Virus record (IMG/VR): IMGVR_UViG_2721755721_000005
Strand: one strand, 5' to 3'
DNA length: 48,167 bases
From: a virus
Taxonomy: Duplodnaviria > Heunggongvirae > Uroviricota > Caudoviricetes
Shown: positions 5,128 through 11,887 of the stretch, piece by piece
Position numbering within the stretch: position 1 is the first letter of the stretch
How the letters are laid out: each line of letters starts with the position of its first letter
Translations under genes and position numbers: made by a program
Notes under the pieces: model-generated
Told to the model about the DNA's origin: nothing
Seen by the model: the letters and a program-made list of their open reading frames with translations, nothing else
Databases searched by the model: none

Positions 5128-5242
5128 GCTGACCTCATTTCCCCTTAACGCCGGGGTAGCGGAACTGTTTGCTGAGAACACCGTGCGGTGTCTTGATGGA
5201 GGTAATTTAGTTTTCTCATTATTTTTCGTCAAGGTTTTTTGA

Positions 5243-5262
5243 TGAGAAAACTCAAGTATTGG
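5243..5262. promoter_or_regulatory. Operator-like site (OL-type): TGAGAAAACTCAAGTATTGG
   Basis: Near-identical copy of the sequence at 5779-5797 (TGAGAAAACTCAATATTGG), on the other side of the repressor gene. Contains the inverted repeat TTGAG-N4-CTCAA and sits upstream of the leftward early genes. Confidence 0.5.
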
Positions 5263-5319
5263 CGCAAGATAAAGCCAATACATTGAAATGTAAGGCTTTA
5301 AAATTTTGTGAAGGGATGA

Positions 5320-5727
5320 TTATTGATGCTTGTTGCGTTTGCGAGCCTCTAATAGCTCGGTGAACAGGCGATTAAAATTCTCAACGCGGGCGCGGAGTTC
5401 GCTGAGTTGTGCTTGTTGCTCTGATTTAGGAAGTGCGCGATACAAACGCAGCATCTCTAACTCATCTTCCGATAAGTCTAAGGCACTATCGAGTGAAACA
5501 GGGGGAGCTGGTGTTTTGTCCTCGTCGCCAAACAGTATCCAGGTTGGTGAACATTGCAATACCTCGGCGAGGCGATGCAAATTTTGCCCGCGCGGGGCTG
5601 TATGGTCACTTTCCCATAATGAAATTGATGAGCCAGATACGCCAGCAGCTTTGCTTAAACCGTTTTGACTTAAGCCTACCTGCTTACGTCTTTCTCTAAT
5701 GCGTTGACCTAAAGTTTTCTCGTTCAT
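5320..5727 (-). CDS. Prophage repressor, XRE-family HTH (cI/RacR-like)
   Basis: Translation from the internal ATG (MNEKTLGQRIRERRKQVGLSQNGLSKAAGVSGSSISLWE...) has a classic XRE helix-turn-helix; divergent from a Cro-like gene. Confidence 0.8.
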   Translation of the reverse strand: MNEKTLGQRIRERRKQVGLSQNGLSKAAGVSGSSISLWESDHTAPRGQNLHRLAEVLQCSPTWILFGDEDKTPAPPVSLDSALDLSEDELEMLRLYRALPKSEQQAQLSELRARVENFNRLFTELLEARKRNKHQ

Positions 5728-5748
5728 ATTTAGATATCTTAATAACCC

Positions 5749-5797
5749 TTGACTTGAGATTCCTTGAGTGATTAGCATTGAGAAAACTCAATATTGG
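5749..5797 (+). promoter_or_regulatory. Rightward early promoter (pR-like: TTGACT-N18-TAGCAT) overlapped by an operator-like palindrome
   Basis: TTGACT at 5749-5754 and TAGCAT at 5773-5778; operator copy TGAGAAAACTCAATATTGG at 5779-5797 covers the predicted start region, just upstream of the cro-like SD (GGAGG) and ATG. Confidence 0.5.
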
Positions 5798-5804
5798 AGG
5801 TGCG

Positions 5805-6032
5805 ATGTTTAAATCAGACGTAATTAATTTTTACGGTACGAAAGCCAAAGTAGCGAAAGCTGCTGGCGTTGACCCATCTGCTGTTTCTCAATGGCAAGAG
5901 CTGGTTCCTGAAGGTCGCGCGATGCGTCTACAGGAGGCATCTGGCGGCGAGCTTCTGTATGATCCCAAGGTTTATGACGAATATCGTAAGACGAAGCGGG
6001 CGGGGCGGTTGAACAATGAAAATCACTCCTGA
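5805..6032 (+). CDS. Cro/YdaS-like small HTH regulator
   Basis: ATG at 5805 with GGAGG SD; 75 aa (MFKSDVINFYGTKAKVAKAAGVDPSAVSQWQ...), Cro/CI-type HTH, divergent from the repressor. Confidence 0.7.
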   Translation: MFKSDVINFYGTKAKVAKAAGVDPSAVSQWQELVPEGRAMRLQEASGGELLYDPKVYDEYRKTKRAGRLNNENHS

Positions 6033-6537
6033 ACAGGCTCGTGAGGCTCTGGATGCCTGGATATGTCGACCAGGAATGACACAGGAGCAGGCGACGATAT
6101 TAATCACTGAAGCATTCTGGGCTTTGAAAGAGCGCCCGAACATCGATGTTCAGCGTGTCACATATGAAGGTGGCGCGGTTGATCAGCGAGCGCTTAGCGT
6201 TAATCGAGTGAAGATATTCGAACGCTGGAAGGCTATCGACACCAGGGATAAGCGTGAAAAGTTCACAGCGCTAGTGCCTGCAATTATGGAGGCTATCCGG
6301 ATTAGTGATTTCAGGTTGTATCGTGAGATCAGTGATGGAAAAAGTATTACGTACATGATCGCCGGGTTAAATAAAGAATATGGCGATGTGGTGGAATCCG
6401 GACTGCTTTTTGCAGATCCTGCCGTTGTAGATCGTGAAACTGACGAACTTATAGAAAAAGCAATTGCTTTCAAGCTTGCGTATCGACAGCAATACCAACA
6501 AAAAGCTGGATGGAATTATGAGTCTTCTTTTTGCTGA
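6016..6537 (+). CDS. YdaT-like early protein (function uncertain)
   Basis: 173-aa ORF directly after the cro-like gene and overlapping the replication gene start, the position ydaT occupies in Rac. Confidence 0.5.
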   Translation: MKITPEQAREALDAWICRPGMTQEQATILITEAFWALKERPNIDVQRVTYEGGAVDQRALSVNRVKIFERWKAIDTRDKREKFTALVPAIMEAIRISDFRLYREISDGKSITYMIAGLNKEYGDVVESGLLFADPAVVDRETDELIEKAIAFKLAYRQQYQQKAGWNYESSFC

Positions 6538-7483
6538 ACGCCCACTGGTTATAAACACGCAGCTGGCAATGAAAATCGGCTTAAACGAAGCCATTGTTTT
6601 GCAACAACTGCACTACTGGTTGAGAGATACCAACTCCGGTATGGAATGTGATGGTGTTCGCTGGATTTATAACACAACGGAACAATGGCTGGAACAGTTC
6701 CCATTCTGGTCAGAGTCAACGTTAAAGCGCGCGTTTGCAAGTCTGAAAACGCTGGGGCTTTTGCGTTGTGAAAAGCTCAATAAATCAAAGCGCGATATGA
6801 CCAATTTCTACACGATCAACTATGGGAGCGAGCTTTTAGATGGTGGCAAATTGAACGAATCCATCGGTTCAAAATGCGCCGCTCCATCAGGTCAAAATGA
6901 CACGATGGAAGAGGTCAAAATGAAACGCTCCATTGGTTCAAAACGACCCAATGTCATCGGGTCAAAATGGCCCGATGATCCTACAGAGAATACAACAGAG
7001 ATTACTACAGAGAATAAAAACACTTTTAGTCCGGAAGCCTCGCAACCGGACCCGCAGACGGCTGAACAGGATTTTTTAATCCGGCACCCTGACGCAGTTG
7101 TGTTTAGCACGAAAAAACGCCAGTGGGGTAGCCATGAGGATTTGGCGTGTGCGCAGTGGATCTGGGGACGGATCGTGGGTCTCTACGAACAGGCCGCCAG
7201 TGATGATGGCGAGATCATGCGACCAAAAGAGCCTAACTGGACTGCCTGGGCCAATGACGTGCGTACAATGCGGATGCTGGATGGCAGAAGCCACAGACAA
7301 ATTTGCGAAATGTTTGGTCGGGTTCAGCGAGATCCATTCTGGGTAAAAAACATCATGAGCCCGTCAAAACTCCGTGAAAAATGGGACGAACTGGTCATCC
7401 GCCTGGGACGTTCACCTGTACAGCGTTGTGTGAATCATATTTCTGAACCGGATACAGAAATTCCGCCTGGTTTCAGGGGATAA
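6518..7483 (+). CDS. Replication initiator (O-like, replisome-organiser N-terminal domain) containing the origin iterons
   Basis: MSLLFAERPLVINTQLAMKIGLNEAIVLQQLHYWL... resembles the winged-helix N-terminus of phage replication initiators; five 23-bp-spaced direct repeats lie inside the ORF, as in lambda O. Confidence 0.65.
   Translation: MSLLFAERPLVINTQLAMKIGLNEAIVLQQLHYWLRDTNSGMECDGVRWIYNTTEQWLEQFPFWSESTLKRAFASLKTLGLLRCEKLNKSKRDMTNFYTINYGSELLDGGKLNESIGSKCAAPSGQNDTMEEVKMKRSIGSKRPNVIGSKWPDDPTENTTEITTENKNTFSPEASQPDPQTAEQDFLIRHPDAVVFSTKKRQWGSHEDLACAQWIWGRIVGLYEQAASDDGEIMRPKEPNWTAWANDVRTMRMLDGRSHRQICEMFGRVQRDPFWVKNIMSPSKLREKWDELVIRLGRSPVQRCVNHISEPDTEIPPGFRG
6862..6968. repeat. Five iterons (consensus CATCGGTTCAAAATG) at 23-bp spacing: putative replication origin
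   Basis: Copies at 6862, 6885, 6908, 6931 and 6954, followed by an A-rich stretch with repeated ACAGAGA (6975-7020); encoded as SIGSK-type peptide repeats in the initiator. Confidence 0.6.
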
Positions 7484-7523
7484 GTGTTGATTTCAGGTCA
7501 TGAGGTAATTTTAAGGGGGACTT

Positions 7524-7949
7524 GTGGCAAAAGTTTTTACACAAGAAGAGCGGGAAAAAATTAAAGGGCAGGTGGTGGAACTCGTGCGCCAGAGCGGTCG
7601 TGAGACGTTACGGCAACTGGAAGCTAAAACAGGTGCGACAAGATATCTGATGAGCGTTCTTGCCAGAGAGTTGGTTGCCAGTGGTGATGTATACAACTCC
7701 GGCTACGGGTTATTCCCGTCTGAACAGGCGCGTAAGGACTGGCAAAACGCCCGCAAAAAACTCTCGAGGGCAAAGGTGAAGAAACCTGCTGTGGTTGATC
7801 CGGATCTTATCTGGTCATTATCTGACGGAGAAATACGTCGCTACGACAGTCGTCTAAACATAATTTGTAGCGAGTGCCGGAGGAGTGAAGTTATGCAGCG
7901 CATACTGGCATTTTATCAGGGAAATGTTCGATATTTTAGACGTTACTAG
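7524..7949 (+). CDS. Hypothetical protein downstream of the replication initiator
   Basis: 141-aa ORF with a GTG start preceded by AAGGGGGA; no recognisable motif. Confidence 0.45.
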   Translation: MAKVFTQEEREKIKGQVVELVRQSGRETLRQLEAKTGATRYLMSVLARELVASGDVYNSGYGLFPSEQARKDWQNARKKLSRAKVKKPAVVDPDLIWSLSDGEIRRYDSRLNIICSECRRSEVMQRILAFYQGNVRYFRRY

Positions 7950-8321
7950 ATTAAAGAGCATTAGTTCAGATATGAATTGACATTTTCATGGCACAGGGTT
8001 GAGCTAGCGTGGTTGTCCGCTTTGTGCCAGTAACGGACGTTTTAAACATTTGTAATCACTAATCCGCGTAGAAAAGATCTCACCGCATAATCAGGCAAAC
8101 ATGCAGGAACATCTGAGGAGTTTTTTCGAGATACGGACAAGGAAAAGCAGCAGAACCTCGTTGAGGCCCTCTCAGGTGGTGCCGGAAAGAGATGTTATGG
8201 TAAATATCGCAGACATAGAGCATTTGAAGTGATATTTAGCATACTTATGCTCTTATTGTAGATTGGCTTTTACCAAATAAGCTTTTTACTACAATGTATG
8301 AACATAAGCCGATTGATCTTT

Positions 8322-9029
8322 TTAGGCAGCAGTCGCTTGCTCACTTCTGCTATCACCAAACATAGTCTGTGCTGCCATGTCAACATCTCCAGATACTGAA
8401 TTCTCGTATCTTCTAATAGCTTCATCTGGCGTTTCGGTAAAGGTTTTTTCAGCAAAAATAATATCTTGTAGTTCGCATATCTTTATTTTCAACTTTCTTA
8501 GGGTGTCACTATCGTTTTTTCCTGTGATCCTCACACAAGCATTAATACGATTAATTATTATTTCTTGGAATATGTTTTTCTTTTCCTCAATTATTCTTCT
8601 AAAAAGAACTATTGTTTTTTCTTTTCCTATAATATCCTCTTCAAGAGGCGCTTTTGCTTTCTCTATATCTTTCTTTGACGCAAACTCATTAAATGCAAAA
8701 GTGGTTATGTAACCTATTATTATAGGAAGGAATGAATAGGAAGTTGGTACTTTTGTTGTTAGGTAGGTTGATATGGCTCCTATGACTATTAATACTGTTC
8801 TTTTATACCAAGGTACAGAGATTATGAATTCGAAAAAACGTGTTATCGCCACATGCATCTTTTGCAAAAGGCAAAGGATTAAAACTACTATAACAACGAT
8901 AATAAGTATCGCAGCAAAACTTGAAGCGACCTCAGTTACTGATGAATTACTATTTTTTTCAGCAGTATAGCTACTTACAGTAGATGGCGTATTGATTTCT
9001 AATTGTTTGTTTTCAATCTCGGTGCCCAC
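8322..9029 (-). CDS. Uncharacterised membrane protein (gene B of a two-gene accessory operon): three predicted TM helices plus a ~110-aa charged C-terminal domain
   Basis: 235-aa ORF with a GTG start 10 nt after the gene A stop. Hydrophobic segments AAILIIVVIVVLILCLL, TVLIVIGAISTYL and FLPIIIGYITTFAF. Strongly AT-rich by eye. Confidence 0.6.
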   Translation of the reverse strand: MGTEIENKQLEINTPSTVSSYTAEKNSNSSVTEVASSFAAILIIVVIVVLILCLLQKMHVAITRFFEFIISVPWYKRTVLIVIGAISTYLTTKVPTSYSFLPIIIGYITTFAFNEFASKKDIEKAKAPLEEDIIGKEKTIVLFRRIIEEKKNIFQEIIINRINACVRITGKNDSDTLRKLKIKICELQDIIFAEKTFTETPDEAIRRYENSVSGDVDMAAQTMFGDSRSEQATAA

Positions 9030-9038
9030 GCTAATCCC

Positions 9039-9509
9039 TTAATCTTTGGCCATTCCTAATTTTTCAAATAATGTCGGTGCTCCAGCTAAAATTGCGGCTA
9101 GCATTCTTAACGAATCACCAGATAAGTTGAGCATCTTTTCATCAACAGCAATCTCTTCTACTGTGAAAACAATCAATGGTGTTTGTTCTTCTTCAATTAT
9201 TGTCGATTTTATTCCTATTGATTTTCTATTAAAATTATTAGCAATGGACAGTAGCGATTGTTTATCTTTGCCTATTTTCATGGCGTTGGTGTTAAAAGAG
9301 TTCATCAGTCTCATTACTATTATTCTAGATGCTACTCTCTTCTCAAGTATTAAATTGACTTCATTGAATTTAAATGCAACCAATTCAAATCCTTCTTCTC
9401 TCTCTAATTCTTTTATATTATTAAACTCACTTATGCTAGATATAATATCTATAAGGCTTTGATTATTTCTCTTTTGTGTTTCGGTTTTTTTCCTTCTTCC
9501 AGAAGACAT
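9039..9509 (-). CDS. Uncharacterised soluble protein (gene A of the two-gene accessory operon)
   Basis: 156-aa ORF with AAGGA SD about 8 nt upstream of the ATG; basic N-terminus (MSSGRRKKTETQKR); no recognisable motif; AT-rich. Confidence 0.6.
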   Translation of the reverse strand: MSSGRRKKTETQKRNNQSLIDIISSISEFNNIKELEREEGFELVAFKFNEVNLILEKRVASRIIVMRLMNSFNTNAMKIGKDKQSLLSIANNFNRKSIGIKSTIIEEEQTPLIVFTVEEIAVDEKMLNLSGDSLRMLAAILAGAPTLFEKLGMAKD

Positions 9510-10537: not shown

Positions 10538-11887
10538 ATGTCGAGTCTGAGAGATATGGAAGAGCTTATTGGTGATATCGTGGATGTTGAGCTTAAAGAA
10601 TACATGCGAGAAGCACTAATTTGCTATATGACTGGTGCTCATCGAGCATGCGTAGTGCTTTCGTTCATTGCCATCTTCGAGGACTTATTCAAAAAGTTAG
10701 ACGGGATGGCCACTACGAATAGAGTTGCTAAAGCGATCTTTACAGAAATATCCAAGAAAAGAGATGAACAAAAAGTTTACGAAAATGATTTGCTTAATAA
10801 ATTGAAATCTGAAAAAATAATTACAGAGATTGATGCTGACTTTCTCACTGTGTTAAGAACTCTCAGAAATAAAGCTGCACATCCTTCAGGCCATAAACCG
10901 ACAGCTGAAGAAGCTCGATATGTGTATTCAGAAACTATAAATAGATTTCTTTCAAAGCCAGTTCTTTCAACAACTCAAGTTGCCGACCAAATCCTATCTA
11001 AGCTTACCAATTCATACTTATTCCCAACATCTAATATTCAGGACCATGCTATCGTAGTAAATGAGGGTGTTAAAAATCTTCATCATGATGGTTACTCATA
11101 CCTCCTGAAAAAACTCATAGAGTCATTAGACAATGCCAATGAACAAATAAAACTTAATGCAAAAAGATATCTTTTAGGCCTATCTTTTAAACCACTAAAT
11201 AACGATGTTCTTGAGCAAATAAAAAAGCATTTCTTAGTTGAGTGCAGTTCGGATGAAAGTAAAAGACAATGTTTAATGGAATGTATTTCAACCAATGGTA
11301 ATTTGCTAAAAGGTATGGAGGATATTGTTTACTTAAGATTAAATAAAATGTTTGAGGATACAATTTCAACTACAAAATCCTCCGATCAGCATACCTATTT
11401 AAGGCACCCTGTACAGATTGCAATTAGTGTTCTTGGGTTGGAAAGAGAAATTATTGATAGATGCTTTAGATCTAGCATTGATGATGTTCTTGAAAAATAT
11501 AAACTTAGCCCAGTGCTGATGAAGAATATAAAAGGGCATGAGTGGGCTAGACAGAAAGTCATCCAATCAATTTTTGGGCAGGCCGGATCTACAACTTTCT
11601 CTGAAGCTAACACTTTTGCTCAGAGTGTAAATTCATACGATGGTGACATCTCCAGTTTGATGGACAACATAAATTGCTTCGAACTCATTGTTCATATCTG
11701 TGCTGCAGGCAATTGGGGTTCATTTGGAGCTGAAGGTATGATGAAAGGAAAATTCAATAATATCCCTAAAATTAAAGAAAAGGCTGTTAAAGCTCTGCAG
11801 GATAATATCTCTAATTGCCAAGAAATAATTGCAAGAATAAATCCAGCTCTATGTGAAGCAAAGGATTTTGAAGAAAGATATCTTTGA
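10538..11887 (+). CDS. HEPN-domain protein (Rx4H motif, DUF4145/Apea-like) with a ~300-aa uncharacterised C-terminal region
   Basis: 449-aa ORF with AAAGGAG SD. Motif LRTLRNKAAHP (nt 10864-10881), i.e. R-x4-H, in a predicted helical N-terminal domain. AT-rich; divergent from the two-gene operon. Confidence 0.7.
   Translation: MSSLRDMEELIGDIVDVELKEYMREALICYMTGAHRACVVLSFIAIFEDLFKKLDGMATTNRVAKAIFTEISKKRDEQKVYENDLLNKLKSEKIITEIDADFLTVLRTLRNKAAHPSGHKPTAEEARYVYSETINRFLSKPVLSTTQVADQILSKLTNSYLFPTSNIQDHAIVVNEGVKNLHHDGYSYLLKKLIESLDNANEQIKLNAKRYLLGLSFKPLNNDVLEQIKKHFLVECSSDESKRQCLMECISTNGNLLKGMEDIVYLRLNKMFEDTISTTKSSDQHTYLRHPVQIAISVLGLEREIIDRCFRSSIDDVLEKYKLSPVLMKNIKGHEWARQKVIQSIFGQAGSTTFSEANTFAQSVNSYDGDISSLMDNINCFELIVHICAAGNWGSFGAEGMMKGKFNNIPKIKEKAVKALQDNISNCQEIIARINPALCEAKDFEERYL

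Follow-up and report, generated by a model that had tools for sequence, protein, structure and literature searches.

In the model developed for phage lambda, initiator dimers assemble on the iterons with bending of the DNA, the neighbouring A-rich region melts under negative supercoiling, and loading of DnaB follows (PMC7466680, PMC5043065). A similar arrangement was described for oriL of phage SPP1, located in gene 38, where initiator-binding repeats and an A+T-rich unwinding element are both found within the initiator gene (PMC6316719). The annotated origins of P22 (gene 18) and phi80 (gene 15) also reside in O-like genes, and consist of iterons followed by A-rich repeats: in P22 the A-rich repeat is ACAAAAGACAATA, present twice and of the ACAAAAGA type, while in phi80 it is ACAAGAACAAGAACAG, of the ACAAGAACA type. 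Among plasmids, the origins of the RepA_N group are also positioned inside the rep gene.

Here, we describe a locus of this general layout in a window of 48,167 nucleotides (the whole stretch of DNA that was analysed), which resembles phages PhiR42_1, HannyBb and mEp460 (95-97% identity). The segment is very probably the origin of vegetative replication of an Escherichia coli prophage, lambdoid and Rac/mEp460-like, and lies in the linker-coding part of that prophage's initiator gene. The lambda ori architecture that the sequence-only reading had recognised is present in each of its testable sequence-level features, namely the location within the gene, the dyad-symmetric iterons, the A-rich neighbour and the homology of the C-terminal domain (C-domain). 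Indeed, the array corresponds to residues 115-168 of 321 (iterons at 115-154), as compared with residues 117-145 of 299 for the lambda iterons. In both cases the iterons are dyad-symmetric and centred on an A-tract (the lambda iteron ATCCCTCAAAACGAGGGA is also a palindrome around an A-tract, with an annotated spacing of 20, 24 and 23 bp), and each array is flanked on its promoter-distal side by an A-rich stretch of ~40 bp whose top strand is rich in purines. Furthermore, the C-domain is homologous to the part of lambda O that interacts with P, and cro-like and cII-like genes are located upstream.

In contrast, five iterons of about 25-27 bp are present here versus four of 18-19 bp in lambda, and their sequences differ. 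The A+T content of the A-rich stretch (6979-7022) is 68%, as against 75% in lambda when measured in the same way, and its repeats are ACAGAGAnTACn rather than of the ACAAAAGA type. The N-terminal domain (N-domain) does not match Phage_rep_O, no P gene follows, and the initiator terminates in a DnaT-like tail. P22 and phi80 differ in that they possess other iteron sequences and in that the O-like gene is followed by the phage's own helicase (P22 gp12) or by a P-like loader (phi80 gp14). The locus is also alike in layout to the origins found inside replisome organizer or DnaD-like initiator genes of Gram-positive phages such as SPP1. Phages of Staphylococcus, Bacillus and Geobacillus encode homologues of the N-domain and carry the same ACAGAGA/TAC repeats; however, these Gram-positive phages usually bring a loader and a helicase of their own. 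Together, the comparisons support a lambda-type origin served by a different family of DNA-binding domain. Against the origin reading it may be noted that iterons 1 and 3 are poor palindromes (7/12), and that the A+T content lies below that of lambda; the missing Phage_rep_O match, the lack of a neighbouring helicase loader gene and the Bacillales homologues devoid of both repeats also weigh against it.

Table 1. Coordinates of the putative origin, its initiator gene and neighbouring features in the window.
Feature	Position	Strand	Details
pR-like sigma-70 promoter before cro-like gene	5749-5778	+	Consensus match only: TTGACT, 18 nt, TAGCAT
O-like replication initiator gene	6518-7483	+	321 aa; PHROG 391 'replication initiation O-like', E 1.5e-92
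N-terminal winged-helix domain, presumed iteron binder	6518-6859	+	AlphaFold2 mean pLDDT 81
Ser67 codon	6716-6718	+	First turn of predicted recognition helix 66-79; co-varies with iteron base
Iteron 1	6860-6886	.	TCCATCGGTTCA AAA TGCGCCGCTCCA; centre 6873; arms complementary 7/12
Iteron 2	6883-6909	.	TCCATCAGGTCA AAA TGACACGATGGA; centre 6896; arms complementary 10/12
Iteron 3	6906-6932	.	TGGAAGAGGTCA AAA TGAAACGCTCCA; centre 6919; arms complementary 7/12; core alone kept
Iteron 4	6929-6955	.	TCCATTGGTTCA AAA CGACCCAATGTC; centre 6942; arms complementary 8/12
Iteron 5	6953-6979	.	GTCATCGGGTCA AAA TGGCCCGATGAT; centre 6966; arms complementary 10/12; best palindrome
A-rich presumed unwinding region	6979-7022	+	Three 12-bp ACAGAGAnTACn repeats at 6981-7016
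C-terminal domain, lambda O C-domain homologue	7085-7399	+	BLASTP 35% identity, 148 aa, E 5e-29
DnaT-like C-terminal tail	7424-7480	+	Last 19 residues RCVNHISEPDTEIPPGFRG; almost the same as the C-terminus of E. coli DnaT, RDVNTVSEPDSQIPPGFRG
Next gene, DUF977/YdaW, 'Ren-like exclusion'	7524-7949	+	Pfam PF06163, E 9e-28; PHROG 142, E 9e-46

The initiator gene, its iterons and its A-rich stretch

The array lies inside an O-like ORF, as had been proposed from the sequence, and the match of this ORF to PHROG 391 is full-length (residues 17-321 against profile positions 11-298 of 298). Its relatives in phages PhiR42_1, HannyBb and mEp460 (95-97% identity) are named O-like or 'Primosomal protein I', and the gene was found in 1775 of 5426 complete E. 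coli genomes, where RefSeq/PGAP labels it 'hypothetical protein'. A Pfam search of the initiator returned no family at E<=0.01; specifically, the N-domain gave no match to Phage_rep_O (PF04492) at E<=1 in a scan where lambda O scored 5.7e-36.

The AlphaFold2 model of the N-domain predicts two helices, at residues 54-60 and 66-79, ahead of a beta hairpin. The closest solved folds are those of RepA_N plasmid initiators (pSK41/pTZ2162 RepA), the best matches being the staphylococcal RepA N-domains 4pql, 5kbj and 4pt7, which include both free structures and one bound to iteron DNA; the likeness is weak (E 2e-3, TM 0.56, 18-20% identity) and is not accompanied by a family match at the sequence level. 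The N-domain family is large, with 10,316 cluster representatives (50% identity) at E<=1e-3 and 4,545 at E<=1e-10, and some of its proteins, of 400-880 aa, have two matching stretches.

Sequence reading, a repeat search and TRF were employed to delimit five 23-bp units at 6860-6979 (starts 6860, 6883, 6906, 6929 and 6952), which belong to one repeat family and for which TRF reports a period of 23 bp. The sequence-only reading had described five copies of a 15-bp motif at exact 23-bp phasing. The repeat and its period of 23 are real; however, the start-to-start spacings are 23, 23, 23 and 24 bp, and while CATCGGKTCAAAATG was recovered at 6862, 6885, 6931 and 6955 with 0-2 mismatches, the third copy (6908) consists of the core GGTCAAAATG only. 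At lag 23 the array matches itself at 59 of 95 positions, which is the top periodic signal of the window across lags 8-60 and all positions (background mean 24.6, sd 4.7, over 2.5 million lag/position pairs). The iteron repeat exceeds chance, and a mismatch-tolerant scan for its motif found no recurrence above chance elsewhere in the 48-kb window. A lag-21 self-similarity at ~1790-1900, in a RecE-like exonuclease gene, is nearly as strong as the iteron signal; it was rejected as a DNA repeat, its source being Q/E/N-rich coding sequence.

Every unit is an imperfect palindrome of about 25-27 bp with a central AAA, the rough consensus being CCATCGGGTCA-AAA-TGACCCGATGG. Iteron 5 was scored by the repeat search as a 91% complementary inverted repeat (TCATCGGGTCA-AAA-TGGCCCGATGA), while the sequence of iteron 2 is identical in Klebsiella phage Kp4882-3. 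Since palindromes of 27 bp at a spacing of 23 bp overlap by 4 bp, adjoining units compete for their outer arms, and iteron 3 is reduced to its core because its outer arms are used by the arms of units 2 and 4. A palindrome scan also picked up a dyad where two units meet, at 6954, in addition to those flanking it at 6942 and 6966. When folded as single-stranded DNA, iterons 2, 4 and 5 are predicted to form hairpins (z = -4.5), and the A-rich part is predicted to be wholly unpaired.

The A-rich stretch with ACAGAGA repeats that the sequence-only reading had placed after the iterons consists of three ACAGAGA-containing 12-mers (Table 1); TRF defines the repeat at 6983-7016 with a period of 12, 2.8 copies and the consensus ACAGAGAATACA. 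Its top strand is 66% purine; of all 40-mers in the ORF it is the least stable (rank 0 of 926), and it falls within the least stable 1.4% of the window. A GATC (Dam) site, at 6977-6980, is situated exactly where iteron 5 meets the A-rich repeats, and the junction GATC(C/T)TACAGAGA also occurs in enterobacterial homologues (loci L086, L090, L096, L097, L098 and L119).

The genes upstream encode a cI-like repressor, a P22-Cro/YdaS-like protein and a YdaT/CII-like protein. Transcription from the pR-like promoter would traverse the origin, and an activating role may be envisaged by analogy with lambda pR (PMC5043065). Pfam and PHROG searches identified no gene for P, a DnaC-like loader or a helicase, either adjacent to the initiator gene or in the larger ORFs that extend as far as the Q-like gene. 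Beyond DUF977, an ORF of 449 aa (10538-11887) and two ORFs on the minus strand (8322-9029 and 9039-9509) have no PHROG match, and may represent morons or defence genes. Rfam returned no structured RNA at E<=1 in 5200-8300.

Iterons, N-domains and the 12-bp repeat across homologues

While an earlier scan of viral contigs yielded only relatives of 95-100% identity and was uninformative, a search with the N-domain alignment against one genome per species produced 80 loci, 75 of them usable, from Enterobacterales, Pseudomonas, Acinetobacter, Comamonas, Campylobacterales, Desulfuromonas, Bacillales, Lactobacillales and others. Conservation of the repeat spacing, the absence of which the sequence-only reading had named as refuting it, is borne out by these homologues: in 54 of the 75 loci, the strongest periodicity of the ~5-kb locus is located just past the N-domain, with a lag of 23 in 34 loci and of 21-24 or double in the others, where chance would produce such a signal in about 1% of loci. 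The iterons themselves vary between lineages (GGTCAAAATGACC, GGGCAAATTGCCC, GGACAATTTGTCC, GGTGCAAATTGCACC and GATCAAAATGATC), yet all are palindromes with an A/T centre, and their copy number is between about 3 and 6. In seven or eight homologues from Bacillales, neither type of repeat follows the N-domain (repeat-less loci L129, L133, L134, L142, L143, L146 and L158); these may have their origin elsewhere, or may not be initiators. The gene of the E. coli prophage also turned up, at 98-100% identity, in metagenome bins assigned to Bacillota bacterium, Veillonella parvula and Collinsella (L087, L088, L136); these occurrences are probably binning contamination.

Klebsiella phage Kp4882-3 possesses an N-domain with 76% identity to that of the window, and nearly the same iterons and A-rich repeats, combined with an unrelated C-domain (Phg_2220_C); nucleotide homology ends directly past the A-rich stretch. 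Conversely, loci in which a lambda-O-like C-domain is joined to other N-domains have entirely different iterons. The iterons track the N-domain and not the C-domain.

Residue 67, in the predicted recognition helix, is the alignment column most associated with iteron class. With the half-sites written as NNN-CA-NNN-TG-NNN, and the base just 5' of the CA core being scored, Ser67 pairs with T in 18 of 18 homologues (enterics and Bacilli), Asp with G in 17 of 17 (Erwiniaceae/Pseudomonas; Campylobacterales, Comamonas and Acinetobacter) and Lys with A in 6 of 6. This pairing recurs in distant clades, although the counts ignore phylogeny, and shared ancestry confounds them in part. Residues other than Ser, Asp or Lys occupy this position in several rare iteron classes.

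The A-rich repeats extend across iteron, N-domain and C-domain types. At least two CAGAGA at a spacing of 11-13 nt were found just past the iterons in 45 of the 75 species-level loci, versus 0 of 1326 background windows, and most of the remaining loci have variants of CAGAGA with one mismatch. The exact pattern ACAGAGAnTACnACAGAGA occurs in at least 120 viral contigs; among the matches listed, nearly all lie at residues 135-185 of an ORF of ~300 aa with lag-23 repeats upstream, and 67 of 112 N-terminal parts resemble the N-domain of the window, the others being different subtypes. One of these other subtypes is represented by the O protein of an Stx1 phage, which has phi80-like iterons. The C-domains that accompany the element (n=179) fall into at least three classes, with 29 lambda-O-like, 59 Phg_2220_C and 91 others.

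A 51-nt query for the element gave matches confined to replication initiator genes, the hosts being Escherichia (Stx phages included), Klebsiella, Erwinia, Acinetobacter, Pseudomonas, Xanthomonas, Burkholderia, Staphylococcus, Bacillus and Geobacillus. From the phages of E. coli to those of Bacillus and Staphylococcus, the ACAGAGA/TAC repeats are almost invariant. The element was also found in 37 plasmid records; in NC_014104 and related 8.4-kb plasmids of Bacillus velezensis/amyloliquefaciens, the A-rich 12-mer element lies where no gene is listed.

Since lambda, P22 and phi80 have related repeats at the same place, the ACAGAGA element can be regarded as a variant of the classical A-rich region. 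It is conceivable, though we advance this only tentatively, that the ACAGAGAnTACn array is a sequence-specific origin element shared across phyla, in phages as well as plasmids of Proteobacteria, Firmicutes and other groups, beyond a generic A+T-rich unwinding region, and is read by a common factor. The presence of the 12-mer whatever the iterons, the N-domain subtype or the C-domain class would suggest such a common reader, much as chromosomal origins have DnaA-trios or the DnaD recognition element. The reader could be the helicase/primase machinery of the host or a conserved face of the initiator, and the 12-mer could act as a strand-capture or helicase-entry signal. By eye, the 12-mer gave no convincing fit to a DnaA box, a DnaA-trio, an IHF site or primase trinucleotides. 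A shared C-domain was likewise rejected as the reader: hhalign of the lambda-O-like against the Phg_2220_C domain detected no homology save for a 14-residue C-terminal tail (probability 9.5%). A full-text literature search for the ACAGAGA motif or a conserved phage unwinding element returned nothing relevant, which is weak evidence of novelty as subscription journals lay mostly outside the search.

Selection on the DNA and alternative readings

Nucleotide diversity was calculated by codon position among 44 distinct relatives. In the N-domain it amounts to 0.018, 0.018 and 0.134 at positions 1, 2 and 3, respectively, the third position being the most variable. The corresponding values are 0.031, 0.041 and 0.037 in the iterons, which are roughly equal across positions, and 0.003, 0.022 and 0.011 in the A-rich stretch, for which the overall diversity is 0.012. 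Relative to the N-domain, diversity at position 3 is therefore 3.6 to 12 times lower in the iterons and the A-rich part, and this drop from 0.134 to 0.037 and 0.011 argues for selection on the DNA.

The reach of this selection bears on whether the locus fires at all. The array might comprise initiator-binding sites for autoregulation, copy control or incompatibility only, or might be the relic of a defective prophage, and the degeneracy of iterons 1 and 3, the lack of an adjacent helicase loader gene and the PGAP label of 'hypothetical protein' in E. coli genomes could all be taken in that sense. Such a non-firing locus is nonetheless quite improbable: strong purifying selection at the DNA level extends to the A-rich part, for which a locus serving purely as a binding site would have no use, near-identical modules are present in the isolated phages PhiR42_1, HannyBb and mEp460, and the layout of iterons plus A-rich stretch is conserved across phyla.

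The mosaic distribution of the A-rich repeats invites another explanation, according to which the ACAGAGA/TAC stretch is kept mainly as a recombination patch for swapping modules of N-domain plus iterons against C-domain modules, and not for unwinding. The element is indeed found exactly where homology to Kp4882-3 stops, and it joins several N-domain types to at least three classes of C-domain. However, the element is nearly identical in proteobacterial and Firmicutes phages, which share only ~50% identity in the N-domain and are unlikely to recombine often; this is difficult to reconcile with such an explanation, as is the related A-rich repeat found at that place in lambda, P22 and phi80, the unwinding of lambda having been mapped to that region (PMC5043065). 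We consider a mainly recombinational role very improbable, although the two roles are not mutually exclusive.

Finally, the units were examined as coding sequence. Units 1-5 translate as SIGSK, PSGQN, EEVKM, SIGSK and VIGSK, and make use of all three frames; since a period of 23 is not divisible by 3, unit 2 (PSGQN) and unit 3 (EEVKM) each fall in a frame of their own. The SIGSK/VIGSK peptides that the sequence-only reading ascribed to the repeats do exist, as ESIGSK, RSIGSK and NVIGSK, but they derive from units 1, 4 and 5 only. Across species, T-E codons in peptide-defined TExxTE repeats are ACA-GAG in 95 of 96 cases, versus 35 of 99 elsewhere in the same ORFs. Hence, the notion of a flexible, repetitive linker (SIGSK, TENTTEITTE) selected for its amino acids is barely credible, despite the threefold occurrence of SIGSK/VIGSK and the fact that 127 of 133 CAGAGA units across homologues are in one frame, as T-E, since units 2 and 3 are read in other frames, diversity is equal at the three codon positions with position 3 far below that of the N-domain, and the synonymous choice is fixed; on reading frames and codon-position data, the peptide repeat was ruled out as the selected feature.

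Proposed mechanism and implications

For the preferred reading, that of a lambda-type replication origin, we infer binding, unwinding and firing at 6860-7022 by analogy with lambda. Dimers of the N-terminal winged-helix domain would bind the five iterons at 6860-6979, with helix 66-79 reading the half-sites, and the resulting protein-DNA complex, formed on tightly packed sites centred on A-tracts, would bend or wrap the DNA. The strain would then melt the adjoining A-rich, purine-asymmetric stretch at 6979-7022 with its three ACAGAGAnTACn repeats, and host DnaB would be loaded at the opened stretch. As in lambda, transcription from the pR-like promoter would cross the origin.

Because the adjacent gene codes for neither a P nor a DnaC homologue, recruitment of DnaB probably proceeds via the lambda-O-like C-domain, the DnaT-like tail or both. 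A similar tail (..P.GFR[GS]) ends 26 of 111 phage initiators with differing C-domains, and judging by its resemblance to the end of DnaT, it may be a docking motif for recruitment of the host helicase; in the literature searched, a role for the C-terminal tail of DnaT is not established.

The origin reading is in itself ordinary; what stands out is an A-rich 12-base repeat that is near-identical in phages of very distant bacteria. The analysis assigns a likely replication origin to a prophage gene that is very common in E. coli and is labelled 'hypothetical protein', and it provides a testable specificity rule, of one residue and one base, for a large family of initiator N-domains for which there is no Pfam model. 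Where an initiator has no accompanying loader gene, the DnaT-like tail may account for its recruitment of the host helicase. In phage lambda, origins of this kind are reportedly sensed by the Lamassu defence system (PMC12663957), which links such origins to phage defence. Furthermore, the strong selection on the 12-bp repeat at the DNA level, from enterobacterial phages to those of Staphylococcus and Bacillus, is relevant to the way in which origins open and one of the strands is chosen.
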